DNA from: an uncultured Thermoplasmatales archaeon
GTDB lineage: Archaea > Thermoplasmatota > E2 > DHVEG-1
Length of the DNA stretch: 64,000 bases
Assembly: GCA_964638175.1 (NCBI GenBank)
Contig: CAZWZY010000006.1
Location: 12,386 to 76,385, forward strand
Direction of reading: 5' to 3'
Below, piece after piece: positions 1 through 28,737 of this stretch. How positions within the stretch are numbered: position 1 is the first letter of the stretch; each line of letters opens with the position of its first letter. The notes beneath the pieces were generated by a model, which was not told where the DNA came from, made no database searches, and was given only the letters and a program-made list of their open reading frames with translations. A program made the position numbers and the translations under genes.

Positions 1-1568
1 TGTACAACCACGTAATTAGCATTCCAGGTTCCTGCCACGTTTTGTTGGTTGCTTGCTGCGCTGTTGTTGTAATACATCCATATCTTTGTGTCAGCGCTGC
101 TCTCAAGCCGAGTGATGTTTACCCAACAGACCAGTTTTCCTGTGGTTCCATTAAAATCTTCAATTTCGTGATTGAGTTTCGTGGTGTTGTCACTGAAGAG
201 CACGAAGGCAATGTCATCGCCGTCATCTTGTGCTTTATCTCGTAAATCGGTGTCTGTGGTACTCACGAGGATGGGAAAGTTTACCATATCTGCATCAACT
301 TGTGAAGAGTTGACGGTGATCAGTTTTCGGTAGTTCCAATTGCTGTTCCACCAGGTGCTGCCTTCAAAGTCGTAGGTAGAGACGTTATCTCTATTGAAGA
401 GCAAGTAGGAGATACGGCCTGAGCTGGGAGCAAGACCGTCCTGAATCTCTTCAAAGGATGGGGCCGTAAACCAGGTTCTGACGGTTACGGGCTCTTGTTG
501 AGGTTGTAAGGAGGTGTAGACGCCGCGATTGAGACCGTCTGCCTTTGCTCCAAGGTTGTTAACCAAGGTTGTTGCTTGTGTTTGGATGGTGTTGGCAAAC
601 GAGACGTCTTTGCTGAACAGAGTAGCTGTCGCAACGGAACGCACCGTTTCTTGCGTAGCATTTGCACCGATAATCTCGATCTTTTCTAAGGCGAGACCGT
701 CTGAATATAACGGTGCAAAGATGGTCTCTGCATCCTCTGCCGTACTGATAGTTCGTTCGACGTAGAAGCTGGCTCCTGGAAGGATGTAACGTTGTTCTTG
801 TTGTGGATTGACGATGAGGTCAGTGGGGGCAGTAATAGTATCATCGCTGACGTTGGTTGGTGGTTGGGTATCATTGGTATAACCATCATCGATTGGTGGA
901 GTGGTATCGTTCTGTGTCTGGTTGTTATCTGGTTGTGTGGTATCGTTCTGTGTGACGTTTCCTTCAGGGGTTTCCTCAGATTCGTTACCGCTCACGTTTG
1001 ATGCAATGGTCCACCGGTAGGTGGTCTGGTAGAAGGTTTGGTTGTAATCAACGGCTGAAAGAGTGATCAGGTGATCTCCTGCAGAGAGATTATGGAAGAG
1101 CCAGGTTCCTTGCCAGAGCCGAGTGGCGATATGGTTATCGATGGTGGTGTTTGCTACCACGGTTAGATTGATGGTCTCGATACCTGAGATATTAGCCCAT
1201 GCGTCAGTAATATTGTAGGACGCAGGAATGGTGGCATTGAAGTAGATGATATCTCCTTCAACAGGATCGATAGGCTCAATGGACACGCCGATATCGAAGT
1301 CGCCTCCTCCGTAGAAGACGGGTAGTGTGGTAAGGAGAAGTCCAAAGACCAGTGCAAGCGAAATCAATGGAAGAATGATCTTGCTCCAGGATAGCTTCGG
1401 ACGAGGTTTGGATGGGGTTCTATGTTGTCGTTTGCTGATAAGGTCTTTCTTGGTTTCCAACGTTTTATCGATGAAGAGACGGTCCACCTGTTCATCGATG
1501 TCGTGTGGTGTTTGGTCGAAGTAATCTTGTAGGCGGTCAAGCCAGCGGAGATCGTCTCTACCGATCAT
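1..1568 (-). CDS. Giant surface glycoprotein paralog 1, N-terminal ~522 codons only (the rest lies beyond the left window edge)
   Basis: Absent from the ORF track because it has no stop in the window. Hand translation of the minus strand from ATG 1568-1566 gives MIGRDDLRWLDRLQDYFDQTPHDIDEQVDRLFIDKTLETKKDLISKRQHRTPSKPRPKLSWSKIILPLISLALVFGLLLTTLPVFYGGGDFDIGVSIEPIDPVEGDIIYFNATIPASYNITDAWANISGIETINLTVVANTT. This is the same cytoplasmic tail, TM helix and first ectodomain as in the 3686- and 2458-aa proteins. The frame was spot-checked open at 421-480, at 301-360 (STWWNSNWNYRKLITVNSS, DUF2341-like) and at 1-60 (AASNQQNVAGTWNANYVVV). The ATG overlaps the TGA of the upstream gene (ATGA, 1565-1568). 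Confidence 0.85.
   Translation of the reverse strand, partial: MIGRDDLRWLDRLQDYFDQTPHDIDEQVDRLFIDKTLETKKDLISKRQHRTPSKPRPKLSWSKIILPLISLALVFGLLLTTLPVFYGGGDFDIGVSIEPIDPVEGDIIYFNATIPASYNITDAWANISGIETINLTVVANTTIDNHIATRLWQGTWLFHNLSAGDHLITLSAVDYNQTFYQTTYRWTIASNVSGNESEETPEGNVTQNDTTQPDNNQTQNDTTPPIDDGYTNDTQPPTNVSDDTITAPTDLIVNPQQEQRYILPGASFYVERTISTAEDAETIFAPLYSDGLALEKIEIIGANATQETVRSVATATLFSKDVSFANTIQTQATTLVNNLGAKADGLNRGVYTSLQPQQEPVTVRTWFTAPSFEEIQDGLAPSSGRISYLLFNRDNVSTYDFEGSTWWNSNWNYRKLITVNSSQVDADMVNFPILVSTTDTDLRDKAQDDGDDIAFVLFSDNTTKLNHEIEDFNGTTGKLVCWVNITRLESSADTKIWMYYNNSAASNQQNVAGTWNANYVVV
949..1001 (-). repeat. 53-nt perfect repeat shared by giant paralogs 1 and 2 (copy in paralog 1)
   Basis: 949-1001 is identical to 13901-13953 (tgtgtgacgtttccttcaggggtttcctcagattcgttaccgctcacgtttga). 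It encodes ..SNVSGNESEETPEGNVTQ.. in both proteins. Confidence 0.9.
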
Positions 1569-2020
1569 GGCCGATCACCTCCTTTTTGCTTGTGCGGGAC
1601 GAGGACGGCGGTGCGGCTGATGATAAATGCCAGCTCATGGAAATAGGGGTTTTCCTCGCGGATCCACTGGAGTAGACGGGAGCGGCCTAACTTGTGTTCC
1701 AATACCTTCAAGACTCGTCGATACGGGATGGGAGAAACAGGACGAGTCTGTTTGAGACGGGAGTGAACATACTCCCGTGCTTCTGCAAAGGTGATGACCT
1801 CGCCAAGGAGTGGGTCAAAGTTCTTGGTCCAGTGATGGATGGTTTGCCTTGAAACATCACCTTTGGTGACCTGGAGCCGGGACAACAGGTCGTTGACAAA
1901 GCCTCGGTACTCCCGCATGTTTTGAAAAGACGGGATGGTTCTGCGGAAGTACAGACAGTAGGCGATAATCGGAAAGGGGATGTTGGTCGGTGGGTAGCCT
2001 TTCAGGGCGTCTTCGGTGAA
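1535..2020 (-). repeat. Module-junction repeat, copy 1 (giant-gene start plus the 3' three quarters of the Zn-ribbon/HTH gene)
   Basis: 1535-2020 aligns with 22650-23135 (offset 21115) with a single mismatch (1560 A vs 22675 G), compared line by line. It is visibly more GC-rich than the flanks. Confidence 0.9.
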
Positions 2021-2155: not shown

Positions 2156-2185
2156 CCCGCTCCGAAAACTGTAACAGAAAGTTAG

Positions 2186-2379: not shown

Positions 2380-2862
2380 TTGTCTGAGGATGGGATGCAA
2401 CAGGTAATCGCACCAGTATTACCTTCAAAAAGAACACTTTACAGCATAGGTGCAGTATTGCTAGGAATCAGTATACTGCTGGTGATGATTGCCTTTCCTT
2501 TTTCGTGGGCAGTTGTTGGCTCTGAGTCAATGAGTCCCACCTTACAAAAAGGAGATATTTTGATATGGAAGCCGGCTCAACAAACCGATCTTGCCATCGG
2601 CGATATTGTTGTGTATGAAAGCTATACGCAATGGCCCAAGAAAACACTCGTCGTACACCGAATATCGGATATTCTCTATGATAGCACTGGCAGCGTACTC
2701 ATTGAAACAAAAGGAGATGCAAATGAATGGATTGACCAAGAACGGCCGCACGTTCCCCAGCCCTATATTTCATATGAGCACATCATCGGAAAGGTGATTT
2801 GTGTTGGTTCTCAACCGCTCAAGATACCAACTGTTGCGCTATTACATAGCTGGTTTGTGTAG
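2380..2862 (+). CDS. Signal peptidase I, archaeal/ER (Sec11/SipW, S26B) type, paralog 1
   Basis: N-terminal TM helix, then VVGSESMSPTLQKGDIL (catalytic Ser box), LVVHRI (His box) and ETKGDAN (GDxN box). The ORF-track start is TTG 2380; ATG 2395 (MQQVIAP...) is more likely. Confidence 0.8.
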   Translation: MSEDGMQQVIAPVLPSKRTLYSIGAVLLGISILLVMIAFPFSWAVVGSESMSPTLQKGDILIWKPAQQTDLAIGDIVVYESYTQWPKKTLVVHRISDILYDSTGSVLIETKGDANEWIDQERPHVPQPYISYEHIIGKVICVGSQPLKIPTVALLHSWFV

Positions 2863-2966: not shown

Positions 2967-3437
2967 GTGGATGGGATGCAGAAACGTGGGTATACGTGCC
3001 TAGTGTCGTCTAGATTGTTCTTTGGTGCACTCTTACTGAGTGTTGGGTGTATTGTTAGTACGCTGTTATTCTCTCCCTTTTCGTTTGCAATTGTCGGTTC
3101 TGCATCAATGAGCCCTTCGTTGTCAAAAGGAGATGTATTACTTTGGGAATCTACAGATATTATCAACATCGCAGTTGGTGATATTGTGGTGTATAAAAGT
3201 CCTGGGTGGTCTGGGGAAAAAATTATTGTACATCGAGTCATAGAGAAAACTGTCGATCATGAGGGTGAAGTGGTCTTAGCAACCAAAGGTGATGCTATCA
3301 CTCAAAATGATCAACAAGAGAGTGTGCTTTCTGAACCGTATGTGGAGAGTGACCAGGTACTCGGAAAAGTTGTATGTGTTGGTGAGCAACCTGTAAAGAT
3401 ACCATTTATTGGCATGATTGGTCTCTTGACAAAGTAA
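2967..3437 (+). CDS. Signal peptidase I, archaeal/ER (Sec11/SipW, S26B) type, paralog 2
   Basis: IVGSASMSPSLSKGDVL, IIVHRVI and ATKGDAITQND, with the same architecture as paralog 1. The likely start is ATG 2976 (MQKRGYT...). It converges on the 3' end of the 3686-aa gene with a 13-nt gap. Confidence 0.8.
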   Translation: MDGMQKRGYTCLVSSRLFFGALLLSVGCIVSTLLFSPFSFAIVGSASMSPSLSKGDVLLWESTDIINIAVGDIVVYKSPGWSGEKIIVHRVIEKTVDHEGEVVLATKGDAITQNDQQESVLSEPYVESDQVLGKVVCVGEQPVKIPFIGMIGLLTK

Positions 3438-3450: not shown

Positions 3451-6400
3451 TTATGACGCAACAGACTTGAAGGTCACCGTCAGCCCAAGTGGATCAGTGG
3501 TTGACGAGGTGGTTGCCATTAAGAGTTTTAAGTCAAAGGTCTTCCAATTATCAGCAGCAAGATTGGTGACAAAGCTGGTGAAGGACGTGGTAATGTTGGT
3601 CCAGGATGCATCACCATTCTTCTTGTACCACAAACTGAAGTTGTCTTTCGCCGGTGGGGTGGTAAGATTCCATTGCGCACCCGTAGTACTGTTGGTGGCA
3701 TGAGTGGCATTAATGGTGATGTCTAAGGCAACATTTCCTTCATTTGTAAGATTGAAATAGAACCCAGTGGTCTCATTGATATCGCCAATATCAACCGAAC
3801 CCATGTCCCACTGAGGAGGAGCAATATCGAAGGATATGTTCTCTTCTTCTGTTGTAAAATGGAATATCCTGCTTGCATTCGAATCTAATCCATCATCTAC
3901 TGTTACCTTCCACCAATAGGTAGTATTGGTGGATGATGCCTGAGTATAACCCCAGGAAACAGTGGAATTTGCCGATACGCTGGTATTGGTTTGATTGACT
4001 ACCCATTCTCCCCATACTTCAAATGCATGATCATCAGTAGCATCAAGAGTGAATCCAGCTGTATCATTTCCATATCCTCTCACACCACCAGAGTATGTTG
4101 GACTGGTAGTATCTGTATGCCATTCTATATCGTTATCAGTATCACCATATTCACACATAGCGACAATGGCATATGTTGTTCCTTGTGAAAGTTCTACTGG
4201 CACATCCCAAGTTACATTCCACGTTCCATCAGGAGGGTAAGTTGAGGGAAGAGATGCTCCTGTTATTGTTTTACTTGCAAGATAACTATTCATGAGAGGA
4301 TGACCAGTTGCATTGGTTTCTCTAAGTTGGAAGGTTGCGTTTGGTGGGTTTCCATATTTACAGACGTACGGTGAAATATCTGTGCATTCAAAGGTTGCAT
4401 TTGTTCCTGTCGTTCCAATGGTAAATGTTTGGAATTCGTACCATCCGGCATGATAGTAATATGGCGAATTTGACTCAGTATATTGTTCGAAGGTTTGTGC
4501 ACCACTAGCATTCTGCCAAAAGTTCACGATAAGTGTATCTCCATCAGAATCGTTTGCCCAGACCTGACAAGTTGGTTGTAATGACACGTCGGTACTACCA
4601 TTCTTCGGAGTTATAGGTGTTATTGTTGGCAGTGTATTGGTTTTGTTATTTGCACTGGCATTCTCATCTGACCATTGATGGACGGTGGGGTTGTATGTCC
4701 ACGTTGTGTAAGACCAAATCTGGTAGTAATACGTCGTTCCCTCTGCAAGTCCAGTGTGTTCATATGAGGTCCCGGTATCATTATAGATCATGGTTCCTTG
4801 TCCTCGAGGCCAACTGGAAGCAGTTGTGTTGTATTCAATATAGGTGTTATTTGCTCCCGTTCCTTTTACCCATGTAAGATTGATTTGTGTAGAGTTATAT
4901 GATGTTGCATTGAAGTTTGTTGGTGCATTTGGTTTTGTTAGAAATGCCATATCTGAGCCATAAGATGCCGCAACTGAGTTGTTTGCAGAAGCGCGGTAAT
5001 GATACAATGTTCCTGGCGCAAGAGAAATCGAATAGTTCACTTCTGCATATATTTGAGTGCATAAACTATTTAATAATCCATCCCAATAGAATAATCCGAT
5101 TCCAATTTCAAGGGAATCTACATCATTTTTTGTCCACGGCTGTCCATCTGAAGGTCTTGTTGTCCATGTTTCTGATTTTAAACCCCAAGATACAGGTAAT
5201 GATTTAATGCCGCTATCTGATTTTACACCATTCTCCTTTATAGATAATTTTACTTCACCAGCCGCGCCTTCTTTTTTGCACATTGCATAAACAGTAACAG
5301 AATTGATAGTTGCTCCGTTGGGAATAGAACTATCAGTCACATTATATAAATCGAATGAATGATCTTGATCGATAGCGCCTTTCACATAAGTATCATCTCC
5401 ATCTGAGGTTACCTCATCAACGCTTTCCCAATTTGTTGGGGCAGGGTCATTTCCATCTATAGCACATTGAGTAAGGCTCCCCGCTGCATTTGGTCGTAAT
5501 ACTTCAGTTTGGTAACCACCTAAACTATCTAAATTATAACTAAACTCATCACCAGTCGATTTTGTTTGATTGCTAGTTGTATTCCCATAACTTATGGTAG
5601 TTCCATATTCGAACCAGACGGTGCAGTTCTCTCCACCATCATTACTGAGATAACCATGCAAGGTAGCGTTGGTTTCTTCGACACCGGTAGAAGCGTTTGT
5701 TGTGACAATAGGAACAACTGAAGGATCACAATGACATATTGCATCAGCAACCGGTGGTGATGTTTCATCAGTACTCCCGGATTTTTTACCGATGCTGTAA
5801 AACTCGTAATAACCAGTGCCGTTTGGGAAGGAAAAGTTCCATTGCCAAGGGCTGCTGGTATCAGGATTACTCGCATCGCTCCATTGCATCCATCCTTCCT
5901 CATCTGCAACAGTCAGAAACGTTGTGGTATTTATGATGGTATTATAGGTGGTATTCATCCATTCATTGCTTCGTACTACTTTGCTAATACGTGCTTCATC
6001 AAATCGTCCATCCCAGCAATTTCCAGCAGCATCATTCCCTATTAATAGATAATTATGGTTCTCTTGTAACGATGCTCCCGTAGTAAATGTATCATCAAAA
6101 CCATCAACGGTTTTATTGTAATGCATAGAGGTGGGATCAATACCAGCGCCACCACCATCTTCATCATACGTACCCCAGAGATACCACCAATAGCCTACAC
6201 CACCAACTCCAGAACCATAATTATCAGGAACATTACCTCCTTGTACAAATTGACTCACTCTCAACCATCTTAGTTCGTAATTATCTTGTGTTCTAAGATA
6301 AACACCCCAATCATTATCAGTCCAGTCTGGCCCTTCCATAAAGATTCTGGGATATGTAACATCATTATTATTAAGATTAAGCCAGATTTCGGCTGTAATC

Positions 6401-9400
6401 TGGTCGTTTAGTGAGTACCAATTGGTGACATTGACGACTCGCTCCTCTGCATCACTATTCTGCATACCTCCTGCTATAATTCCTGTTGCACTTACCATGT
6501 TGGTATTTGTACCATTATAATTGTTTCCAGAAGAATCATTGAAGCTATTATTGAAGTGCCATACAGCCACATAATCGCCATCCCATGTGCCTGCTACATT
6601 CTGTTGGCTTATACACGTTGTGTTTCCAAAGTATAGATAAATTTCAGTATCAACTGAAGCGCTGAGGCTGGTGACATTCACCCATGCGATAAGGGTACCA
6701 CTCGTGCCGTTAAACGACTCTATTTCGTGGTTCAGTTTAGTTCCGGTTATATTAGTAAAGACAACATCGTCTCCATCATCCTGAGCGCTGTTTGCGAGAC
6801 CCATATCAGTGATACTGACAAGTATCGGGAAGTCGGTGAGATCATCATCAACTTGATTATGATCTATGGTTAATTTCTTCCGATATTTCCAGGAGGCATT
6901 CCACCAGTCAGAAGCATTCCCCCAATTCGAATTATCAGAAGAATAGCGGTACCATAGGGTTACATTATCATAGTCATTATGTTGAGCGGTGGCATTAATC
7001 GTTAATGAAGAAGAGAATATCTCGTATGGGCTAATTGCATCAACCGATGTACTAATCGATCCCGTAGTGAAGTGATATGTTTCATTACACCAATACGTAC
7101 CATCAGTGAGGTTTACACTCCAATAGCATATTGTACCATAATTACTAAAGTTAGTATTTATTTGACTGATATTTACACTGCCACTACTAGCATCAATGCT
7201 ATTATTGGTGGCGAACAATGCCCAACCACCACTACTGTTGCTATACCAATACGCAGTTAAAGTATCACCATCAGCGTCATCTACGGTGACATTTAACACA
7301 GGAATAATGCTGATATTCGTCGCTCCATTTGATGGGGATGGGGAACTCTGCGTCGGTTCAGGAGATAATATCTCAAGAGTGCGTGTTTCGGTTGTATTCT
7401 CATTTCCTGCCACATCAATGGCATGAGCATAATACGAATAGTTCCCAACAGATAATCCTGTAAAGTTATGATGTAGCTTGTAGTCTGAGGAGTTATAAGA
7501 AGCGTTTATTTCTTCCCAGCTGAGAACTCGGTTCCATACACGTACTTCATCGATGGATCCATTGAAAAGAAATGCTGTTCCAGGGCTTTCGCCACCAATA
7601 CATAATGGAAGACTATTTGTCCCGATAGGGCCAGTGGTGGCCGGTGTTACAGTGCCTGCATCCGCACCGTTAATGTAATATTGTATGGTGGTACCATTGT
7701 AGGTTGCAACAACGTGTGACCATTCTCCCTGATTAAATCCACTAGATGACCATAAGTCATTTCCTTGTGCTACCCCACCAAACTCCGCTGCCAGTTCTAT
7801 TTTTCCAGTACCCATAATTCTAAGTGCGTACGCTGATATCCGGCTTTTACTGACTAACCGGGGCCAACCTATGAACGTCCCATAGTTCACCCATGCTTCA
7901 ATCGTGATTTCATCAGTAATATCGAAGCTTACATCATTTCCACAGTCAACATAGTCGCCGCTATCAAAACTGAGAGCAGATCCAAACTTTCCCGTTGTCA
8001 GATTTGGTAATCCTGTATTCAACCAGAGAGCATATGAATCTCCCTCGTTAAATCCTGTCAATGTGTCTTGGAAATAGAGTGCCCTGTAAGATTCATTGAC
8101 AACTTCATAATCTGAGATAATGGTAGTATTACCGTTCGCCAATCCAGAAGTGGCCATAAATGTCCATCCATTAAAAACATCGTCTGCAGTCTGTAACGTA
8201 TCATCATCTACACACTGTGTTTCATTGGTGGCAGCCACATCTGCAATACCAGTAATATTAGTATATTCTCGAGTTCCATTGTTACCATAGGTAGAATTAT
8301 CAAAGACATGTGTAGCATTGGTGTGTTCAAAGCTCCAATAACCGACGAGACTATTATCCCAGTTGATAAAGCTTGAGGTGTCGCTAGAATCTGAGACGGT
8401 AACATTAATCTGTGCATAAGTATCGGTTGTTTCAGTATCATTTGCGGGAGTTGGCGGAGTGTCAAAGGAGATGGAAGGAGCAGTATCATCGAATAGACAT
8501 ATTACATCAGCACTCCCTGGCGCAGACTCAATATTGGTAAAGTTATCCGTCGCAATACTGTAGAATTCGTAATAACCAGTACCGTTGGGGAAGGTAAAGG
8601 TCCAATTCCAGTCATAATCAGTATCGGTTGTGTTTTCCACCCAGCCACCCCAGCTACTGTTATCCGATGAATAGCGATACCATAAGGTGACGTTCTTTAC
8701 ACCTGATAACTCATCTGATGCGGTAGCTGTAATCTCTATCAATCCTGTGGAATTTACATACGGAGAAATTGTATCAATTGACGAACTTGGAGGTTGGTTA
8801 TCAGAGCCAGCAACCGCATCTCTTCCTTCAATAATTCTTCCATAATAGATACTATATGGAGAAGAGGTTCCTTGCCTCCAGACGAAATCAATTTTTGTGC
8901 CATATGGCCCCAGCACGCAACTTGGAGAGTCATGCCCTGTATTATCATTTGTTATTGAGATATTACCACTAAGCGAGTTGTTGGTTCTCCAGAACGTTCG
9001 GTAGAAAATATCATAATTTGCATTAATTGTATCTGATCTGAAAAGAATATACACTTCTGTACTATTGTGTCCTCTGGAGATGTGTGCTCCTCCTGAATCG
9101 TTATGAACCGCATAGTCTGAGGACCAGCTTAAGGTGGGGATAGGAGTATATCTGACATATCGAGTGTTATCGTTACTATGCCAATAAGTTAAATAGAGAT
9201 ATCCATCAGAAGTAACAACAATGGATGGGTCCTGTCGGTAGTTTGTCCCCCAAAGCGACCGGGCATTTATGGTCCATGATGTTCCTCCGTTATACTGGAT
9301 ACGTTGAGTATACCCATTACCTCCATTTGCACTCCATTGCCGAGGCGAGACCCAAATATCCTGCGTTGATGGATCGATATCGACAGAGAGATCATAACTT

Positions 9401-15101: not shown

Positions 15102-15107
15102 TTAGAG

Positions 15108-15261: not shown

Positions 15262-15306
15262 CTATTTACGATAGATGCAACTATTCATTGTAAAAACAAA
15301 AAAAGA

Positions 15307-21300: not shown

Positions 21301-22683
21301 CGCAGGTGAGGTAAGGTTGGTACTGCCATCATTACCTGCAGCGGCAATCACAAAGATGCCTTGTTCTGTGGCGCTGTTAGCTAAATCGGCAACGAAGTCA
21401 GCATCGCAAAAGCCGGTACAGGTAGCCTGGGAGCCGATGCTGAAGCTGATGATGTCTGGATGTTGATCCATACACCATTGTAATCCTTCTAACACATCAG
21501 ATTCATAGCCGGTGCCATTGGCACCGAGTACTTTTGCGACAATTAGTTCTGTCTCAGGCGCCATGGCCTTGATAACAGCTGCAACCTGGGTTCCGTGACC
21601 GTGCTCATCGTCTGGGATGCTGTCATCGTTGACGAAGTCATAGCCATAGCTGTAGTTCACCAGAGAGGAATCGACACCGGTGTCAAGGATGCATATGGTT
21701 GTCCCGTTGCCGGTGAGATTAAAATCTTTTATTGAGTCGTTGAAACGGATGAGTGGAAGACTCTCCAGCAAGAGTACATTAAATGACCGATCAGAATAAA
21801 TGCCTTCTATATCACTATAGTTTTCAAGGATATCAATGAGAGAGGTGTTGATAAATCCGGCAACCAATCCAGCAGATTTAATTTCGGCCGTTGTAATCAA
21901 ACCCAAATCTTCTAACCAATCAGTTTGAACACCTAGGCTTGTTTTGCCAAGAGTTTTCTCAGTAAACTTTACAATCACTCTAGTTTTGTCAGTATAATTG
22001 GAAGGTCCTACTGGTTCGGATGAATCGTTCGTTGGTGGCTTGGTGTCGTTGGTATGGTCGACTGGCGGTGTAGTGTCGTCCTGTGTCTGGTTGTCGTCTG
22101 GTTGTGTGGTTTCATTTTGGGTTTCATTGGAAGTAATGGTCCAGCGGTAGGTGGTCTGATAGACGGTTTGGTTGCGGTCAATGGCTGAGAGGGTGATGAG
22201 ATGGTCTCCCGCCGAGAAGTTTTGGAAGAGCCAGTTGCCTTGCCAGAGCTGATCAGTGGTTACGTTATCGGTTGTATTGAGTAACTTCAAGGTAATTCGT
22301 TCTCGTCCAGAGATGTTTGCCCAGGCCGCAGTGATGTTGTAGGATGTTGGAATGGTTGCATTAAGGTAGATGAGGTCTCCTTCTACTGGATTTGTAGGTT
22401 CAACAGAAACGCTGATATCGAAGTCGCCGCCATAGAAGATTGGTAAGACCGACATGATCATGGCAATGATAAGGGCAAGAGAGGTAAGGGAGAAGGCAAG
22501 TTTGGCAATGGGTAGCTTTTTCTGCGGTTTTGGTGGTCTTCTTTGTTGTCGTTTGCTGATGAGGTGGTTGTGTGTTTCCAGTGTCCTGTCAATGAAGAGA
22601 CGGTCGACACGCTCATCGATGTCTTGGCGTGGTGACTGGATGCGGAGTTGGTCAAGCCAGCGGAGATCGTCTCTGCCGATCAT
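15307..22683 (-). CDS. Giant (2458 aa) N-terminally anchored surface glycoprotein with an embedded subtilisin (S8) protease domain, paralog 3
   Basis: It has the conserved tail, TM helix and first ectodomain. An I9-like propeptide (TRVIVKFTEK...) precedes the S8 catalytic motifs ICILDTGVD (Asp334), DEHGHGTQVA (His), AAAGNDG (Asn) and GTSMSAPHVAAA (Ser), at nt ~21004-21990. A discoidin-like segment follows (ALDGTDYWGVGFKTQHWLILDLGETYTIKKVRARSN). Then come six ~130-aa units, each with Y(A/V)(V/I)(D/E)(L/I)(D/E)G(T/I)(Y/F)(T/A)(H/A)N (nt ~17590-20151, beta-helix-like). The C-terminal domain is shared with the 3686-aa and 291-aa proteins. Confidence 0.9.
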   Translation of the reverse strand: MIGRDDLRWLDQLRIQSPRQDIDERVDRLFIDRTLETHNHLISKRQQRRPPKPQKKLPIAKLAFSLTSLALIIAMIMSVLPIFYGGDFDISVSVEPTNPVEGDLIYLNATIPTSYNITAAWANISGRERITLKLLNTTDNVTTDQLWQGNWLFQNFSAGDHLITLSAIDRNQTVYQTTYRWTITSNETQNETTQPDDNQTQDDTTPPVDHTNDTKPPTNDSSEPVGPSNYTDKTRVIVKFTEKTLGKTSLGVQTDWLEDLGLITTAEIKSAGLVAGFINTSLIDILENYSDIEGIYSDRSFNVLLLESLPLIRFNDSIKDFNLTGNGTTICILDTGVDSSLVNYSYGYDFVNDDSIPDDEHGHGTQVAAVIKAMAPETELIVAKVLGANGTGYESDVLEGLQWCMDQHPDIISFSIGSQATCTGFCDADFVADLANSATEQGIFVIAAAGNDGSTNLTSPACGSQVFSVGATDDTDTIASFSNVNPTLDLFAPGVDITTIAGTSSGTSMSAPHVAAASALVVEAEFLPPADLKYRLRSTGTPIKYTYNESLTIDIGRLDLYNALTNTKTMEPYNYSHWLQDNISEGGEYESLADAWLGINSSEYDSDSGDDGSHTASEALDGTDYWGVGFKTQHWLILDLGETYTIKKVRARSNLTADPTDVDIYVSDSKASWGTAVATGINTWQDNSSWQEVDTTDKDGRYINISITATEIAGGGGTWALSFGGNPAFTIFDAYGSTSLSVENVTITATHNFTLDDLIGSGDIYSGQEENSTFEWWTNESGSWAALGVNSTTLDSNYTNESAWYKFEYTPGNGTAYGDPVNSSAFQVKPLSEAAGTYSGAYDEAENLTIANGGNLTISGTIDIDGDVLVQNGGTLSLGSSNQYLGSLTVNAGGSCTGSSGTLFITSETSGGYAVDLDGTYTHNSGILEINTDDNTWIDPSGAGNPDHFNNVIIDLVSTTDDVFLSASFPTDGFLTIDDGELNTNNNAVTINEDVLIQSGGEFDGEGDTADHSFGALDIEMGGVFRGAANSKITITDETVAGYAVEIEGTYTANANTIEIQTPSSTKVDFMAPLSLNTVYDIIIDTGDVVEWVGATTISNSLTIEGGSTFQPDTNTYSLSVAGDVTLLESGTLSADRGGAAWSFGSLTTTDTTETVDATSGTTTITSYNTKTKYVVDLDGTYTHNSGTLRFTLGDKVEVKADLIPFKSFVYDLTIDIGDTTVVSWEGSTTINHDLTVNSGTFSPDASESSLTVNGDVSVTGGIFGRNDIEITAGWQFLSLSQTGGTIQAPASTISIRGKTSGLPSYAVDLDGTFAHNAGIIEINTDSTAAYLDLQPSSGTVNDIIIALSDTSYDIYLATSCTISGSCKIDECELDTNNKALTVTSELLVLSGGVFDGAGDTFDHSFGALDVDSGGTFTGSSSSTIIITGESSGYAVDLDGIYTANSNTLEIRTNANTEADLIPSVGTVYDLVINTQGNDYLVDWGGATTISNDLTITNGVFRPNIAGDTLTVSNDASLSGSGSTLGLDSASGAWSFGSLTQEASTTILATSGTITITDEASSGYAIDLDGTYTHNSGTLEIERGGVEDSTIIDIAPSSGTIYDLVIDTLGNTVTSDELATIANNVTVDAGSFDVTANLSINGMNIDEGTTFNIKENSTLTMSGVLTLNGDFDIINGSAVEVTLNSTTFDLTDGINVSLHTLPIIPANPSGLGNISKYVNVTAIDASATVDINISYDDADLGSIMEDTLVMYEYNETTGLWVQAPNTGADTSTNHVWATDVTNFSIYGPMGRINIAPEISNPYPPNESTNIPLRPSMNITVNDGNGHTMNVTWYSNSTGPGDLILRPNANGTTTNLNKNGDNANYKCVDEETHDGSSTHVSRSAGSWANDTYNITDHGLASDEQGVINFVNVYIVACRDNNFGMPPTDSYTKIILCNGTHYNESDQFTIAQGMSPLPWTSYNRSWATNPFTGSSWTWNDIDTIEAGVAFVGNQGLSRCTQLYVVVNYTAPAWLPFGRNNSVGNGTYHQTNANFSAYDTTYWWYVNASDGYTTNMSDIFHFTILQDNAPEFSNENPVNGSVNVSLYPTVNITINDDESDPLNISFHTNQSGSWSSFGSIVKEGTSDFGYTWAQGSTKEDTNDMIRGTWFTCPTNGTAAGITARVYVTGGQFDSAKMNCALYYKSNLSLIANTTEVTFGSMLGPNHDGWKEFTFDSPPVLAAGEEYYVVIHGDLLSAYNVKVYNASTPYSNRSISMSQAYGSFPAELTPTYIGNKMYEIYVEYTPDSVANGTYYMDYLNTTSPNATYYWNVSADDGNLTNTSDLFHFTTESENTTITVTPDQWAMGTIDVGGSNETTGFYFTLTNNGNCYVDIQIKGEDATNETEGTTWKLTPTPGHDNFSMQYNLSSEGTWTTINTSFEPFLADLAIDDSQTFDLKFIAATTSSTTTPMSLSLTFKSVVS

Positions 22684-23135
22684 GGCCGATCACCTCCTTT
22701 TTGCTTGTGCGGGACGAGGACGGCGGTGCGGCTGATGATAAATGCCAGCTCATGGAAATAGGGGTTTTCCTCGCGGATCCACTGGAGTAGACGGGAGCGG
22801 CCTAACTTGTGTTCCAATACCTTCAAGACTCGTCGATACGGGATGGGAGAAACAGGACGAGTCTGTTTGAGACGGGAGTGAACATACTCCCGTGCTTCTG
22901 CAAAGGTGATGACCTCGCCAAGGAGTGGGTCAAAGTTCTTGGTCCAGTGATGGATGGTTTGCCTTGAAACATCACCTTTGGTGACCTGGAGCCGGGACAA
23001 CAGGTCGTTGACAAAGCCTCGGTACTCCCGCATGTTTTGAAAAGACGGGATGGTTCTGCGGAAGTACAGACAGTAGGCGATAATCGGAAAGGGGATGTTG
23101 GTCGGTGGGTAGCCTTTCAGGGCGTCTTCGGTGAA
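22650..23135 (-). repeat. Module-junction repeat, copy 3
   Basis: See 1535-2020. Confidence 0.9.
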
Positions 23136-23258
23136 ATATTTACCACAAGATTTGCAAAAAAATTGAATTTTTCCTTCGAGAGGATGGCGACTCTGGACTA
23201 TCTGTCCACTAGAACAATACGGACAAATAAATCGAGTTGGCAATCCCATCCTTTTCAA
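22680..23258 (-). CDS. Zinc-ribbon + HTH DNA-binding protein, InsA-like (copy 3)
   Basis: 192-aa ORF from TTG 23258. The likely start is ATG 23249 (MGLPTRFICPYC...). A second GGGATGGG start context at 23269 opens only ATG GGC ACT ATT TGA. The stop overlaps the ATG of the 2458-aa gene. Confidence 0.75.
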   Translation of the reverse strand: MKRMGLPTRFICPYCSSGQIVQSRHPLEGKIQFFCKSCGKYFTEDALKGYPPTNIPFPIIAYCLYFRRTIPSFQNMREYRGFVNDLLSRLQVTKGDVSRQTIHHWTKNFDPLLGEVITFAEAREYVHSRLKQTRPVSPIPYRRVLKVLEHKLGRSRLLQWIREENPYFHELAFIISRTAVLVPHKQKGGDRP

Positions 23259-23523: not shown

Positions 23524-24120
23524 CTAGTATCTTCTTCGGTAGGCTAGATAGACTAAAACAACAATGGCAATGATAACAATGGCAATAAAAAGATTGATGA
23601 GCATAAAGAAAGAAGAGAAACCATCTTCGTCACTTGGGGAGACTGGTGTCAGTGGGGTATCAACATACACCCGAACAAGATACCCCTCTTTTACCATAGC
23701 AGATTGGTTAGTTGAAACAGTATCAATTTGAAAGGCAGCCCGTGTTTCCCAATGTTGATCATAGGTTTGATTTTTACTTTCATTAGGAATGTGCGTAGCG
23801 ATAAAAAACTGGACTTGACTATTTGGCGGAATGACAATGTACGATGGTTCGATAGAAATCCATGAAATATTATTAATTAACGTTTTGTTAGGGCGCATCC
23901 ACTCGATAATATCAGGATGAAGCATCCATGCTTTCACCGAGACGTTGTAGTCATAGGTATTTTTTACCGTGATCGTTTTGCTGGTATTACCGTCAATAAA
24001 GCCATTTTCCATAGAAACCCACATCTCAGCAGGAGAAACAAAAATGGCTGCTGATGCGACTGGAGAAAGAAAGAAGCCAGTAAGCAGGAGGGTGCTCATG
24101 AAAATTAATCGACGGTTCAT
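23524..24120 (-). CDS. Small membrane-anchored secreted protein (signal peptide, beta-rich ~150-aa ectodomain, C-terminal TM anchor); possible Ig-like/chaperone-like fold
   Basis: MNRRLIFMSTLLLTGFFLSPVASA signal peptide. Strand-like patterns such as KTITVKNTYDYNVSV and ISIEPSYIVIPPNSQVQFFI. C-terminal FFMLINLFIAIVIIAIVVLVYLAYRRRY. Confidence 0.7.
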   Translation of the reverse strand: MNRRLIFMSTLLLTGFFLSPVASAAIFVSPAEMWVSMENGFIDGNTSKTITVKNTYDYNVSVKAWMLHPDIIEWMRPNKTLINNISWISIEPSYIVIPPNSQVQFFIATHIPNESKNQTYDQHWETRAAFQIDTVSTNQSAMVKEGYLVRVYVDTPLTPVSPSDEDGFSSFFMLINLFIAIVIIAIVVLVYLAYRRRY

Positions 24121-24159: not shown

Positions 24160-24990
24160 TTATGCAAGCTCAGACCAGAACCTCACACTCGTGTTTAAAC
24201 TACCGCTGGGCGATGGTACTACCGAGGTGGGCATTGAGAGATTTAATCCAAATTCTTGCCAATAGGTATAGGCAAAGTAATCGGAATTGAATTCAAGATC
24301 GGTAACAAAACTGGCATTGGTTAGTCCAATAGCAGTCCAGGTTCCTGCACCACTTTTTTGATATTTTAACGTATAATTATTGACACCAACAGAAGAAGTA
24401 AGATTCCAGTAATTGCTACCATACGAGATGTTGTACCCATGAATCTTTACATTGATGTTGACGTTTCCTTGATTGGTGAGATTAAAATAGGTATTGCTGG
24501 TAGCATTCCAACTACCATAGTCAATGGTTCCTGCATCCCAGTTCCAGGGAGTAACATTAATGGAGAGAGTTTGGTTTTGCAATCGTGTCCCTCCTGTTAA
24601 ATTACACCACGAAAAGGTACCTCCCGTATCAACCGAGGTGTCGTTCTCACCTACCTGTCCACTATAACTACAGTTGACTACAATTTGATCACCATTGGTA
24701 CAATCAAATCCTGAATCCTTTCCAACATTGATCTGATACGCGCCATTGCTCCCTGTGGTTGTGGTAGTCCCTGAATTATCATTTTCGTTGTTGGTAATCG
24801 TGACCGTAACGCCAGACGGTACCGCGGTACCATTCCATTGTTTAACGTATCCTCTTACATAATACGGGCCACCAAGATCACCTTTCACAAGAAGAGTGTG
24901 AGAAATACTCACTGATAGCCCAATAACCAGAAGAGAAACCAAGATAACGACAAAACGTCTGGTTCTCAAAGATTCAGGGCTTTTCTTCAT
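24160..24990 (-). CDS. Secreted protein: CarboxypepD_reg-like N-domain plus the C-terminal domain shared with the two complete giant proteins
   Basis: The ORF track extends to 25035. ATG 24990 (MKKSPESLRTRRFVVILVSLLVIGLSV) overlaps the TGA of the upstream 510-aa gene (ATGA) and follows AAGGAG. YVRGYVKQWNGTAVPSGVTVTITN... is CarboxypepD_reg-like. The last ~135 aa align with the C-termini of the 3686- and 2458-aa proteins. Confidence 0.8.
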   Translation of the reverse strand: MKKSPESLRTRRFVVILVSLLVIGLSVSISHTLLVKGDLGGPYYVRGYVKQWNGTAVPSGVTVTITNNENDNSGTTTTTGSNGAYQINVGKDSGFDCTNGDQIVVNCSYSGQVGENDTSVDTGGTFSWCNLTGGTRLQNQTLSINVTPWNWDAGTIDYGSWNATSNTYFNLTNQGNVNINVKIHGYNISYGSNYWNLTSSVGVNNYTLKYQKSGAGTWTAIGLTNASFVTDLEFNSDYFAYTYWQEFGLNLSMPTSVVPSPSGSLNTSVRFWSELA

Positions 24991-26519
24991 ATGATCAACG
25001 TCCTCTCCTTTGACAATTGTGAAAGTTTGATACAAACAATATCATAGCGATGGATATCAAACGTATCTTGGAAATCGGTGGAAAGGGAGGGATTGTAAGT
25101 TTTCCAGGAGCTGCTTGTCGTATCATAGATGCTGATTTCGATATTTACGCCTGCTAAGTCGTACGAAGCAATAAAGGTTGTAATCGAGATATCTCCTCCA
25201 GGCCAGCCAAAGAAATTATATCCACTATTGCCTGTCTTACTCTCTCCATCATAAGAATATGATAACGTAAGAGACTGTGGGGCATCATCCTGTGCTGAAA
25301 TGTCCACCGAAATGATTTTCATAGATGTAGTGTAAATGATTATAACATCCCATGGATTAATAACAAACGTCTCTGCTTCACTAGATTTGCCAACGGTATA
25401 CGTTAACCATACCCCTTGAGTGTTATCAAAAATGCTGATAGTATCGCCCACAGCCAACTGTGCTTTTTCTGCAAGAGAGCTTGCGTTGATAGCAGCTCCT
25501 CTCCATGTTAAGTAATTAATGCCATTATTTTGAGAAGAAGTAAGCGTGACGTCTTCAGTTTGTTCCCAACCGGACGTTACTGGTTTCTCAGTGACCGTGA
25601 TAGTTTGTTGTGTCGTATCAGATTCGTTTTCATTGTCGGTGACGGTAAGTACGACAACGTACTGTTCTTCTTCAGTATATGCATGGGTAGGATTCTGCTC
25701 ATATGATCCTGTATCATCACCAAAATCCCACGTCCAATTGACAATGATTCCATCGTCAGTAGACGTATCCGTAAACGTGATGACTTCATCAATCAAAGGA
25801 TTTGCAGGGGTATATGAAAAACCAGCAGTTGGTACCTCGTTTTCTATGGTACCTGGTGGATTACTAATCGTTACCGTGAGTACATCAGACCATCCTATCC
25901 CTCGCTCTGCGCCATGTACATCTTTTGCTTTTACTTTCACAGAATAGATTCCTGCTTGCTGCCACGTGTGTGTTATATTAAAAGTTTCACCAGAATCATG
26001 CCATGTAGTCCATTCATCAGCAATATCGTCATTGTTCCAATCCCATCCATATTTCACCTGATCTGTAGGAGTATCGGGATCAGTTGTTTGGGTAGAAAAC
26101 TCAAGGATAGTGTTTGTATACGCAGTTGTGGTCCCTAATGGTTGGTCTGGAACGAGAGGAGGAAGGTTGCCAGTAATAGTTACATTACATCGTTTTGAGG
26201 GACCTTTGCCTACCGTTACCGAATTATTTCCTTCACATCCACCATAAGAGACATTGACATATACAATATCACCTTCATCAGCATCTATATCGAAAACGTC
26301 TAAATGATACAACCCCGTATGGCCGTTCTCAGCTGTTGTAGTATATCGAGTCATGTTATCTCCAGTGTTTGAGTTGGTTATGAGAACAGCGACACCATTA
26401 GGGATAGGGGATCCATCACTATAGTCAATATACCCATATACCGTTTGGTGTTTCGCCCCAAAAACACACGGCAAAAGAGCAAGTTGAATGATAAGGACAA
26501 AAGCGATGAGTAGTGCCAC
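24987..26519 (-). CDS. Secreted protein with CarboxypepD_reg-like and PKD domains and a duplicated C-terminal domain
   Basis: VYGYIDYSDGSPIPNGVAVLITN (CarboxypepD_reg-like). Two PKD-like segments (YGWDWNNDDIADEW...YSVKVKAKD; FSYTPANPLIDEVITFTDTSTDDGIIVNWTWDFGDDTGSYEQNPTHAY...VVLTVTD). The C-terminal two-domain region resembles that of the 641-aa protein. The start is uncertain (GTG 26519 in the track; see findings). Confidence 0.8.
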   Translation of the reverse strand: MALLIAFVLIIQLALLPCVFGAKHQTVYGYIDYSDGSPIPNGVAVLITNSNTGDNMTRYTTTAENGHTGLYHLDVFDIDADEGDIVYVNVSYGGCEGNNSVTVGKGPSKRCNVTITGNLPPLVPDQPLGTTTAYTNTILEFSTQTTDPDTPTDQVKYGWDWNNDDIADEWTTWHDSGETFNITHTWQQAGIYSVKVKAKDVHGAERGIGWSDVLTVTISNPPGTIENEVPTAGFSYTPANPLIDEVITFTDTSTDDGIIVNWTWDFGDDTGSYEQNPTHAYTEEEQYVVVLTVTDNENESDTTQQTITVTEKPVTSGWEQTEDVTLTSSQNNGINYLTWRGAAINASSLAEKAQLAVGDTISIFDNTQGVWLTYTVGKSSEAETFVINPWDVIIIYTTSMKIISVDISAQDDAPQSLTLSYSYDGESKTGNSGYNFFGWPGGDISITTFIASYDLAGVNIEISIYDTTSSSWKTYNPSLSTDFQDTFDIHRYDIVCIKLSQLSKERTLII

Positions 26520-26650: not shown

Positions 26651-28561
26651 TTACCAGTCATCAGTGTCATAATCAATATTGGCATGTCCTGGTGCTCTAA
26701 AACAGATGACATCATATGGTGCAATACTGGTAAGTGTTGCAAAATCAGGATATTTTGGGTTATAGTTTAGCCATGTGTTTGTTGCAGGTTTATAGACGTA
26801 AAATTCAACGTTTTCTCCAGCAACCCCGCTACCACCTAAACTTGCTGCAAAATTTTCAGGGGCGATAGCATAATCGTTACTCCAGGTAATATAATAGTAA
26901 TTTTCATTCGTACTATTGAACTCCATAGTTTTTTGTTGGGACGTAGTTACCGCATCATCGGGGGTAAAGGAATGCGTATGATCAGAGTTAGTGTGAATTT
27001 GCACATAATCCCACCTATTAATGGTAAAATCAGCTTCTCCGCCTTCTTCCTCACTCACGCCAGCCACATATTCTACAGTTGACCAGTCACCAGTGCCAGG
27101 ATCAAACTTCCGAATAGCGTCTCCGGTGTCAAGACCCATATCTGTGGCAAGTTCACTTGCTAATATCGACGCAGTAGCACCCCATGTTATATAGTTGATA
27201 CCGTCGTTGTTACTGTTGTTGACAACCGCTATCTTTTGTTTGACGGTAACCATTGATTCACTATACGATACTGTTTTTTCACAGTCAGTAACTGTTAAAT
27301 TGACGGTATACCGCTTAGCAAAGATGAACGAGTTTTCTACAATAGACCCAGAATCATCTGGAGTGCCATCATTATCGAAATCCCAACTATAGCTTAACGC
27401 ACCAGCACCATCTGAATTACTTGCATCAAAGGTAACAGAATCGCCGCTATCAGGATTTGCATCTGAGGGGGAAAAGTGTGCATCTGCAACAGGGACATAC
27501 GTAATCCGTAAGTCAACTTTGGAACAGTATACTCGAAAAGAGGCTTCTGCTTCGGGGTGTGCAGAAACTTTACACTCTAAAGCATAAACATCCTCCCATG
27601 TCCAGGACCCGGGACCATTCGCATCATCGGTGATGTCAAACCACTGAGACCACGCACCTTCATCTGCCGGAGCATCATAGTGATAATTACCATCCCCATC
27701 GGTATCTCCACCAAATACGGGTATGAGCCAGAGATCGGTTGCTACTGTTTTACCACTTGCATAGTATCCTTTACAACGAAGTTCTACCTTCAATATCGAC
27801 CCACTTAATCGAGTGCAATTGTTGGCGGTCAAAAGTTGAACATCAGCATCTGTTGCTGTAAATGCATAAGACTCCTCCTCCCCATCAGCCATCATGGGGT
27901 ACTCTCCTTCCCAAGCAACAGCATTGGTAGCCTCGTCAAAAAAATGGACAGGTTTTCGGTCATACAACAGGTCACCAAAGACATCAAAGATACTGAAAAA
28001 AGACATCGATCCGCCGAATTGCAGTTCACCGTTTATATCCTCTGTGGCTTCTATCTCTACTTTGACATATCGGCCGTTTTTGGGATCAAAATCTGATGAT
28101 GCTATCCACTCGCTGGTATCGCTCAAGTCAAGTCTCTCTATTGAAGCTGCCTCAAAATGGTCTGCTTCAGTACTTATGTATATATTTACAGAAGTTGGAT
28201 CTTTCAAAGAGTTTGAACGGCCACGAATCGATGAAATAGTATACGTATAGCCAAGATCTATGAGAAACCAGTGTGGTGTCTTACTTCTACACTCCCAATA
28301 ATCGGTACCATCAAGTGCATCGGGGAGTAGATGGGTAAAAGAACCTGGTCCCGTGTCATGACACCGTGAATACAAGTGACTGCTATCAATACCAAGCCAA
28401 CTTCCTTCAGGGGAAGCATCAGCAGCACCTTGTTCCGGCATAACCATAATTACTACCGTAAAACTTGCAAAAACGAGCATAAACATTATAAAAAATGGAA
28501 ACAATCGATAGACGTTCTGCTTAGATGTGAATGCATTATCGTTGCGTTTTTTTCCTCTCAT
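26651..28561 (-). CDS. Secreted/anchored protein with a discoidin-like domain, a PKD domain and a duplicated C-terminal domain
   Basis: The ORF track starts at 28576. ATG 28561 (MRGKKRND...) lies 8 nt after AAGGTGGTGA. A TM/signal segment is present (LFPFFIMFMLVFASFTVVIMVM). ALDGTDYWECRSKTPHWFLIDLGYTYTISSIRGRSN is similar to the 2458-aa protein. A PKD-like segment is present (FSPSDANPDSGDSVTFDASNSDGAGALSYSWDFDNDGTPDD...VNLTVTD). Confidence 0.8.
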   Translation of the reverse strand: MRGKKRNDNAFTSKQNVYRLFPFFIMFMLVFASFTVVIMVMPEQGAADASPEGSWLGIDSSHLYSRCHDTGPGSFTHLLPDALDGTDYWECRSKTPHWFLIDLGYTYTISSIRGRSNSLKDPTSVNIYISTEADHFEAASIERLDLSDTSEWIASSDFDPKNGRYVKVEIEATEDINGELQFGGSMSFFSIFDVFGDLLYDRKPVHFFDEATNAVAWEGEYPMMADGEEESYAFTATDADVQLLTANNCTRLSGSILKVELRCKGYYASGKTVATDLWLIPVFGGDTDGDGNYHYDAPADEGAWSQWFDITDDANGPGSWTWEDVYALECKVSAHPEAEASFRVYCSKVDLRITYVPVADAHFSPSDANPDSGDSVTFDASNSDGAGALSYSWDFDNDGTPDDSGSIVENSFIFAKRYTVNLTVTDCEKTVSYSESMVTVKQKIAVVNNSNNDGINYITWGATASILASELATDMGLDTGDAIRKFDPGTGDWSTVEYVAGVSEEEGGEADFTINRWDYVQIHTNSDHTHSFTPDDAVTTSQQKTMEFNSTNENYYYITWSNDYAIAPENFAASLGGSGVAGENVEFYVYKPATNTWLNYNPKYPDFATLTSIAPYDVICFRAPGHANIDYDTDDW

Positions 28562-28737
28562 GAAACCGCTCACCACCTTTTTTAGTAGTATAATACTTTG
28601 TTATATATTACCATGACTTACTTTGTCATTACCTACTTATATACCTATCCTGTAAAACCATCATATACGACAAAATAACAAAACGACATTTTGTCATCTC
28701 CCGTTTTCCCACCTTAACGGCGCTCATCACTTCTTAT

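Follow-up and report, generated by a model that had tools for sequence, protein, structure and literature searches.

How large glycoproteins are attached and organised on the surface of archaea that are wall-less or poor in S-layer, as many Thermoplasmatota are, is essentially unknown. A locus that raises this question lies in a stretch of 64,000 nucleotides from an uncultured Thermoplasmatales archaeon (contig CAZWZY010000006.1; hereafter the window), where positions 1–28576 encode giant membrane proteins, secreted proteins, small DNA-binding proteins and signal peptidases. Followed from its right-hand end to the left, the minus strand encodes S641, S510, S291, M198 and the pairs Zn3–G3, Zn2–G2 and Zn1–G1; two signal peptidase genes, Sip1 and Sip2, occupy the plus strand in the interval from Zn1 to the 3' end of G2. 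An earlier note, made from the sequence alone, had taken these 28 kb for a single dedicated export and assembly system; listing and translation of the open reading frames (ORFs) recovered every gene that it had named. Here, we ask which of these genes belong together and what they may do. The answer centres on an immunoglobulin-like (Ig-like) domain that ends several of the proteins and on the tail-anchored protein M198, whose gene follows one that encodes this domain.

A shared C-terminal domain and its tail-anchored neighbour

The shared domain measures ~130 amino acids (aa). A six-frame search of the window with a profile hidden Markov model (HMM) of the domain found it only in the giant proteins G2 (aa 3557–3686; positions 3454–3843, minus strand; E = 9e-48) and G3 (aa 2329–2458; 15310–15699, minus strand; E = 6e-45) and in S291, and detected no stand-alone subunit. 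S291 (24160–25035, minus strand) is 276 aa long from an ATG at 24990, or 291 aa from an upstream TTG; its signal peptide is followed by a CarboxypepD_reg-like domain and, at the end, by the shared domain. The profile, built from G2, G3 and the S291 family, was searched against 1.84 billion representatives and retrieved 740 of them at E ≤ 1e-3, of which 151 reached E ≤ 1e-10. The domain thus occurs elsewhere in Thermoplasmatota, in proteins of 150 to 3811 aa, and the match almost always runs to the final residue. Many are secreted, stand-alone forms of about 160–172 aa, in which a signal peptide and an extra N-terminal beta-strand of alternating hydrophobicity ("DTATITVTVTP") precede the domain; fusion proteins lack this extra strand, its place being taken by the end of whatever domain comes before. 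One W-x-[LI] motif is invariant in the domain, and a second is not conserved. Neither the shared domain nor the stand-alone subunits had a match above cut-off in Pfam or NCBIfam, and three stand-alone members gave sub-threshold matches to the generic Ig-like choice-of-anchor D domain.

M198 (23524–24120, minus strand) is a protein of 198 aa in which a PapD/MSP-like Ig domain lies between a signal peptide and a C-terminal transmembrane (TM) anchor. It also lacks any match above cut-off in Pfam and NCBIfam, and sequence searches of the Protein Data Bank (PDB) with profiles of the M198 family and of the shared domain returned nothing significant. The family alignment contains an invariant, family-specific motif, HPDIIEWMRPN. 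In an AlphaFold2 (AF2) model made from this alignment (mean pLDDT 65), the signal peptide forms a helix, seven to eight strands make up a sandwich, and the TM helix at the C-terminus is predicted with confidence. Compared with the PDB by Foldseek, the model gave 164 matches at E ≤ 1e-3. Most of the top matches (probability 1.00, E from 2e-6 to 4e-5, TM-score ~0.4–0.6) are PapD-like folds; they comprise the pilus chaperones Caf1M, FaeE, CfaA, PapD, CsuC, DraB and FimC as well as MSP/VAP and ASH/CEP192 domains. At this model confidence, the fold agrees with the earlier note, in which M198 was a small, membrane-anchored protein resembling an anchor or chaperone.

The two families are paired in the genome. 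The M198 family has 15 genes in 11 non-redundant loci, and 13 of these come immediately after a gene whose product has the shared domain at its end. This adjacency extends to the distant loci L020, L025 and L026, and spans lineages that are 25–50% identical and have different flanking genes. In L020, a giant of 2925 aa is accompanied by PKD proteins, an S8 protease and three stand-alone subunits, and an M198-like gene (HMM E = 6e-14) comes after them; one further subunit of this locus is split by a 320-aa insertion. In each of L003, L010, L025 and L026, an M198 paralogue comes after a PKD protein and then a single stand-alone subunit or two of them. The proposal that the proteins sharing the C-terminal module belong with the anchor protein is therefore borne out by this adjacency. 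A scan of genome contigs with the M198 alignment identified three GTDB representatives only, all of them metagenome-assembled genomes (MAGs) of Thermoplasmatota.

A docking model and a fibre alternative

We favour a docking or anchoring system, in which the C-terminal Ig-like domain is captured by M198 as its tail-anchored receptor or chaperone, and judge the chances of this explanation to be evenly balanced. M198 would be embedded in the membrane and serve as receptor or chaperone for the shared domain, which it would capture probably through beta-strand complementation. Such capture would dock and organise the secreted proteins and the giant glycoproteins on the surface of an archaeon without a wall polymer. 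Since the giants probably stay uncleaved, with a type II membrane topology (see below), the domain at their far C-terminal end could be docked either in cis or, on a neighbouring cell, in trans.

Several points weigh against docking. The AF2 models of M198 and S291 each average no more than pLDDT 65, and matches among Ig-like folds are promiscuous. The adjacency of the domain-bearing gene and M198, read from gene order, could reflect co-regulation instead of physical interaction. The other two of the 15 M198-family genes follow genes for NosD-type beta-helix membrane proteins without the shared domain, and the 20.6 kb that were read of L014 contain two domain-bearing giants and no M198 gene. 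Lastly, the absence of signal peptidase genes from related loci, described below, holds within ~10 kb, most related contigs being short and often broken at the repeats in the Zn genes.

The NosD/beta-helix partners have ~700–800 aa, a TM segment of their own and a cytoplasmic coiled-coil tail (L025, 6357–9093; L026, 18691–21487; L003, 8815–11464). M198-type proteins may have more than one class of partner.

The stand-alone forms invite another explanation, that of a donor-strand fibre in which the ~160-aa proteins polymerise through their extra N-terminal strand. S291 and the giants would then be tip proteins or adaptors of the FimH/PapG kind, and M198 a membrane-tethered, PapD-like chaperone or platform that works without an usher. 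The alternating-hydrophobic strand is consistent with this, as it is present in the stand-alone members and absent from the C-terminal fusions, and so are the matches of M198 to the chaperones of chaperone-usher pili. Donor-strand filaments are also known from archaea, where they include ABP, threads, tafi and cannulae (PMC9245690, PMC9715654, PMC11821415). The AF2 model of S291, in which the transthyretin-like N-domain is good (its CarboxypepD_reg-like domain matched 3e8v and 4v4c_B in Foldseek), weakly matches FimG, FimA, CfaB and the PapG pilin domain, as well as the TasA fibre at rank 21 (E = 1e-2). These pilin and TasA matches of the modelled C-domain (E from 1e-3 to 1e-2) are a hint only: its pLDDT is 50–65, and its Foldseek matches (E ≥ 3e-4, TM-score 0.2–0.3) are weak and come from a low-confidence model. 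Moreover, M198 has a single Ig domain and is not a two-domain chaperone, and the archaeal donor-strand filaments described so far are reported without chaperones. As the window encodes no stand-alone subunit, the major subunit of such a fibre would be missing here, and for this reason we rank the fibre below docking at this locus and regard it as unlikely. Equally doubtful, in our judgement, is a broader version, in which a tail-anchored, single-domain PapD-like protein would complement the Ig-like domain by donor strand throughout the phylum Thermoplasmatota, forming an usher-free system of independent origin that serves both fibres and the attachment of giants.

Comparison with known systems

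Judged by analogy, the closest published architecture is the WxL/WxLIP cluster. These (DUF916–DUF3324) cell-surface complex (Csc) clusters of Firmicutes (PMC10599100, PMC1534035) comprise the same three parts: the domain on its own as a small secreted protein, the domain as the C-terminal end of a large protein that starts with binding or enzymatic domains, and, next to these, a conserved Ig-like protein anchored by a TM helix at its C-terminus. AF2 predicts that the WxLIP and WxL partners are joined by strand insertion (PMC10599100). The three-part arrangement is found in L003, L010, L020, L025 and L026, and the window has the same minus the small form. The families themselves show no sequence similarity: the shared domain had no match to Pfam WxL at E ≤ 5, and neither WxLIP_PGBD (DUF916) nor WxLIP_HBD (DUF3324) matched M198 or its paralogues, the one noise match (E = 0.27) concerning an unrelated family member. 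WxLIP has two Ig domains and M198 one, the LPXTG partner is lacking here, and the wall-binding role of WxL cannot apply to a host archaeon without peptidoglycan.

Chaperone-usher pili may share with this locus the PapD-like fold (as matched by the M198 model), adhesin-like proteins with a C-terminal pilin-like Ig domain, and the N-terminal strand of the stand-alone forms. They differ in that M198 has a single domain and is tethered to the membrane, and in that there is no usher or outer membrane here; the likeness is one of fold only, drawn from models with pLDDT ~65. No usher family matched any window protein that was scanned. To our knowledge, archaea of the Thermoplasmatota have no outer membrane.

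The two-component S-layer SlaA/SlaB of Sulfolobus (PMC10903991) offers a third comparison. There, too, a small, beta-rich protein with a C-terminal TM segment tethers a large, heavily N-glycosylated protein, as may be the case for M198. The large proteins of our locus, however, have an N-terminal TM anchor of their own and carry enzymatic or lectin domains; no homology between the two systems was seen, no test aimed at it having been made, and nothing points to a lattice here.

Our literature search yielded papers on archaeal donor-strand filaments and on WxL clusters, and none that describes the pair of domain and anchor in Thermoplasmatota. The locus is best filed with the non-covalent systems for surface docking or strand complementation by a C-terminal domain, and it rests on three unannotated families: the Ig-like domain (at least 740 cluster representatives), its PapD-like, tail-anchored partner, and an IS1-derived Zn-ribbon protein that is coupled to the giants. 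To these comes a pairing rule, by which a domain-bearing gene is followed by the anchor gene. If docking is the correct explanation, it would be an archaeal analogue of the WxL/WxLIP and chaperone-pilin systems and would explain how abundant archaea of sediments and springs display proteases, lectins and adhesins.

Giant proteins and their coupled Zn-ribbon genes

The giants bear on the docking model through their topology. Each has a single hydrophobic segment at ~aa 62–82, behind a cytoplasmic tail of ~60 aa. G1 (3–1568, minus strand) is represented by its N-terminal 522 aa and continues beyond the left edge of the window; it has the cytoplasmic tail, one TM segment at aa 64–82 and a DUF2341 domain (Pfam) at aa 449–514, and its N-terminus is 71% identical to that of G2 and 63% to that of G3. 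G2 (3451–14511, minus strand; 3686 aa) has a type II membrane anchor, two Laminin_G_3 domains, DUF2341 and fn3-like repeats. G3 (15307–22683, minus strand; 2458 aa), also with a type II anchor, contains a Peptidase_S8 subtilase domain at aa 325–539 with an intact D/H/S triad, a discoidin domain at aa 612–705 and beta-helix-like repeats. After the TM segment the giants carry a conserved FYGG|DF sequence, in which small residues are absent at positions -1 and -3; as far as can be told from this motif, they probably remain uncleaved, as membrane proteins of type II, and are not substrates of signal peptidase I. As had been noted from the sequence, all three are rich in N-X-S/T sequons, which occur at 2–3 times the number expected from composition-matched shuffles: 157 in G2 (shuffled 63.8 ± 7.2), 88 in G3 (39.6 ± 5.6) and 22 in the visible part of G1 (7.2 ± 2.4).

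Each giant gene is preceded by a gene for a Zn-ribbon protein with a helix-turn-helix-like (HTH-like) segment. These are Zn1 (1565–2155; 196 aa), Zn2 (14508–15101) and Zn3 (22680–23258), all on the minus strand, and the stop codon of each overlaps the start of its giant gene by 4 nt, as ATGA for G1 and G3 and as GTGA for G2. The N-terminus of the Zn proteins, which are 192–197 aa long, matches NCBIfam NF050000, the Zn-binding domain of IS1/IS1595 (38.2 bits, cut-off 28), and the equivalog model of IS1 itself reaches 29 bits against a cut-off of 100. Four Cys residues, a GYPPTNIPFPIIAY segment and an HTH-like VSRQTIHHW segment are conserved in the family alignment. Bicistrons of a Zn gene and a giant gene with the 4-nt overlap recur at 47–79% identity in L014, L015 and L018. 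The derivation from a transposase and the position before each giant, both claimed in the earlier note, are thus upheld by the NF050000 match and the conserved bicistrons.

With the IS1 protein InsA and with IS1595, the Zn proteins have the Zn-ribbon DNA-binding domain in common. The inverted repeats and the DDE domain are absent (Pfam detected no DDE or transposase domain in the Zn proteins), and, unlike in these elements, the Zn gene is always translationally coupled to a gene for a giant membrane protein. This constant coupling indicates that the Zn genes are domesticated and not mobile, and we rejected mobile IS elements on the strength of both observations. We infer, more weakly, that the Zn-ribbon/HTH proteins are domesticated, IS1-like DNA-binding regulators of the giant gene to which each is coupled. 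The Zn protein may also have a link to the giants' cytoplasmic N-tail, which is conserved.

The C-terminal two thirds of each Zn gene lie within direct repeats of ~450 bp (1589–2039, 14532–14982 and 22704–23154) that are 96–100% identical. Their flanks, i.e., the 5' parts that code for the Zn-ribbon and the 5' ends of the giant genes, are only 55–75% identical, which points to gene conversion between the repeats. Giant genes are likely to be deleted or duplicated by way of these repeats. Their near-identity is probably also the reason why the contigs of the relatives L005, L006, L001 and L002 stop within a Zn gene.

A locus of separable modules

The genes S641, S510, S291 and M198 form an operon-like cassette. 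S510 (24987–26519, minus strand) has a signal peptide, a CarboxypepD_reg-like domain, two PKD domains and a tandem C-terminal module of ~85 aa, and its stop overlaps the start of S291 by 4 nt (ATGA). S641 (26651–28576, minus strand) has a signal anchor, a discoidin domain (F5/8 type C), a PKD domain and the same tandem module. All-against-all BLASTP confirmed the mosaic of shared domains that had been described for the window proteins, i.e., the C-terminal, discoidin, duplicated and CarboxypepD_reg-like domains. S510 and S641 align with 30% identity over 357 aa, the discoidin domain (Pfam F5_F8_type_C) is common to G3 and S641 (41% over 158 aa), and the CarboxypepD_reg-like N-domain, a weak Pfam match, is common to S291 and S510.

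The tandem module makes up the C-terminal ~180 aa of S510 and S641 (24987–25500 and 26651–27200, minus strand) and belongs to no Pfam family. Its pattern is N-x-I-N-Y-L/I-T-W ... I-x-I-F/Y-D ... W-x-T-Y ... F-x-I ... D-V-I, and it is kept in the orthologues upstream of every S291/M198 pair.

Orthologues of S510 precede those of S291 and M198 in L003, L005, L008, L010, L012 and L018, and orthologues of S641 are found in L005 and L012. With L023 added, the same loci show the order of a PKD protein, an S291-like and an M198-like protein, often after a discoidin/PKD protein, and the genes that flank this cassette vary (purL/purS, TruB, NFACT/Pelota or DUF763). In L018, the cassette is followed by a Zn gene and a giant gene, which matches the order in the window. 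In L005 (78% identity), M198 is separated from a Zn gene by AbiE toxin-antitoxin genes, and the contig breaks inside that Zn gene. No giant, Zn gene or peptidase was found in the 10 kb that were read on each side of the cassette in L012, and in L015 the Zn–giant bicistron adjoins TGT and MarR genes and the cassette is absent. L014 contains a giant of at least 4781 aa, then a Zn gene, then a 2798-aa giant with DUF2341 and Laminin_G_3. The earlier view of the locus as one 28-kb unit is therefore not supported, as cassettes occur without giants (L012) and bicistrons without the cassette (L015); the locus is composed of separable modules, namely the cassette, the tandem Zn–giant bicistrons and the Sip pair. 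What is supported of that view is the presence of a conserved surface-protein system that has not been described before.

Such separability would also be seen if there were no dedicated system at all and the locus were a hotspot at which paralogous surface glycoproteins shuffle generic Ig-like modules, M198 being merely co-transcribed. The giants, the cassette and the peptidases do occur independently, gene conversion and direct repeats indicate active recombination, and the shared modules (PKD, discoidin, fn3, CarboxypepD_reg-like and Ig-like) are all common extracellular folds, to which the sub-threshold choice-of-anchor D matches of three stand-alone members may be added. Against a hotspot stand the order of a domain-bearing gene and then an M198-type gene, which holds in 13 of 15 cases across lineages of 25–50% identity with different flanking genes, the position of the domain, which is nearly always at the extreme C-terminus, and the invariant HPDIIEWMRPN motif of M198. 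We therefore consider it improbable.

Signal peptidases and the TasA/SipW analogy

The Sip pair had suggested an analogy with the TasA/SipW system of Bacillus. Sip1 (2380–2862, plus strand) is an archaeal or ER-type signal peptidase I of 160 aa with an N-terminal TM segment, and Sip2 (2967–3437, plus strand; 156 aa) is its paralogue with 42% identity. Sip2 and G2 are convergent, with stop codons 13 bp apart. Both peptidases match Pfam Peptidase_S26 and exceed the cut-off of TIGR02228, the archaeal-type signal peptidase I model (70.4 and 69.6 bits, cut-off 51.85). The catalytic motifs GSESMSPTL, VVHRI and KGDAN are present in Sip1 and have equivalents in Sip2, and both are minimal Sec11-type enzymes without accessory domains. 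The SipW equivalog NF046067 was far from reached (40.3 and 36.6 bits, cut-off 190), so that of the earlier designation as tandem SipW/Sec11-type peptidases the Sec11 part is supported and the SipW part is not.

Searches by tblastn and HMM found no Sip homologue in 14 non-redundant related loci. L014 contains the orthologous G2–Zn1–G1 junction: its downstream giant aligns with G1 over all 522 visible residues (54%), its upstream giant aligns with the C-terminal part of G2, and the spacer measures 129 bp, against 1295 bp here, where it holds Sip1 and Sip2. A scan of genome contigs with the Sip alignment confirmed no relatives, the derived patterns being too specific. The predicted co-occurrence of these surface-protein families with neighbouring S26B peptidases was thus not found in the 14 related loci. 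TasA/camelysin (Peptidase_M73) and the models of SipW-cognate signals matched no protein encoded in 1–28576, the shared domain giving no match even at E ≤ 5, and signatures of DUF1102 and DUF5305 were likewise absent from the proteins of the locus.

A TasA/TapA/SipW-like export and assembly system, with the two S26B peptidases as dedicated maturases of the island proteins, can draw on their position inside the locus, between two Zn–giant modules, and on two proven cases of a dedicated S26 peptidase, that of TasA in Bacillus and that of the haloarchaeal tafi (TafD) (PMC9245690, PMC11821415). A distant locus, L019, also has an S26 protein directly after a DUF2341 protein. Set against this are the related loci and the orthologous junction that lack a Sip homologue, the failure of the SipW, TasA/camelysin and SipW-cognate models, and the minimal size of the peptidases (156–160 aa, no accessory domains); the giants, with FYGG|DF, are probably not substrates of signal peptidase I. 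In the absence of conserved linkage this explanation is largely refuted, and we hold it to be very unlikely; the TasA/SipW analogy is not supported. Secreted beta-sandwich subunits are common to this locus, to TasA–TapA–SipW and to the archaeal donor-strand filaments, and the latter set a precedent for strand-complemented surface structures in archaea. TasA and tafi clusters also encode an S26 signal peptidase, as the window does. The peptidase linkage is not conserved at this type of locus, however, and the archaeal TasA-like and donor-strand systems are described without a chaperone-like component, which M198 resembles here.

The Sip pair looks like an ordinary Sec11-type pair that was inserted between two bicistrons, outside the conserved system; recognising this guards against an attractive but wrong TasA/SipW annotation. 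S291, S510, S641 and M198 have canonical cleavage sites of the A-x-A type, and we infer, again with less weight, that the peptidases merely process these signal peptides as they would those of any Sec substrate.

L019 was the one distant, non-orthologous match in a scan of metagenome contigs with the Sip alignment. At positions 7495–11506, an ORF of 534 aa comes right after its gene for a DUF2341 protein of 805 aa and overlaps that gene; the N-terminal ~110 aa of this ORF are an S26 domain with 43% identity to Sip1/Sip2, and the following ~400 residues belong to no family. The S26 protein of L019 may be a TafD-like peptidase dedicated to the DUF2341 surface protein.

C25 peptidases

Three genes of the window encode Peptidase_C25 proteins (47237–49759, plus strand; 49808–52726 and 59747–61276, minus strand), and C25 genes also adjoin related clusters in L025 (12639–14453) and L026 (21535–23578). 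The association is inconsistent across loci; the C25 peptidases could be processing enzymes for surface proteins.

With such peptidases at hand, the C-terminal domain might be a cleavable sorting signal like the C-terminal domain (CTD) of the type IX secretion system (T9SS), removed by a C25 peptidase resembling PorU or gingipains, with M198 as acceptor or shuttle. The very diverse cargo that ends in the Ig-like domain would be in keeping with a tag, as would the C25 genes of the window, L025 and L026. Proteins that consist of the domain only, however, make no sense for a pure tag, C25 genes are absent from most related loci, and no other T9SS-like components were seen. We therefore regard a cleavable tag as extremely unlikely and docking onto M198 as the better explanation of the C-terminal domain.

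Chromosomal setting and neighbouring genes

The remainder of the window contains purL, gyrB, an intein-containing gyrA and rad50, from which we conclude that the DNA is chromosomal. The region is a stable chromosomal surface-protein locus that adjoins purL/purS in an uncultured Thermoplasmatota archaeon. A horizontally acquired island was considered and rejected, as the GC content is unremarkable and the cassette adjoins purL/purS in relatives with 41–78% identity. An exact-match look-up returned metagenomic contigs only. Homologue clusters are few among 5.8 billion proteins (24 for M198, 29 for S291 and 24 for the Zn protein), and the taxon names attached to these homologues are those of Thermoplasmatota or Thermoplasmatales MAGs only. 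No RNA families or tRNA genes were found in the window.

Between the cassette and purL lie genes for an MntA-like nucleotidyltransferase and a Fic-domain protein (29765–30334 and 31112–32059, plus strand). At corresponding positions, L005 (78% identity) has several AbiEii-type toxin-antitoxin modules (1224–2574 and 10827–16581), and the borders of the cassette therefore look like a hotspot for the insertion of toxin-antitoxin and defence genes.

Beyond purL, a protein termed p756 (35458–37728, plus strand) combines a signal peptide with fn3-type modules and a TM helix at its C-terminus. Its modules are 39–50% identical to those of G2 (BLASTP), so the shared pool of domains extends past position 28576 and across purL. 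An intein that carries a LAGLIDADG homing endonuclease domain (matches to Intein_splicing, LAGLIDADG_3 and Hint_2) splits the gyrA gene (43356–47216, plus strand). Between p756 and gyrA, a protein of 608 aa (39414–41240, minus strand) combines about six predicted TM segments with a Vps62-like domain (Pfam PF06101, E = 8.5e-7), which is unusual for an archaeon.

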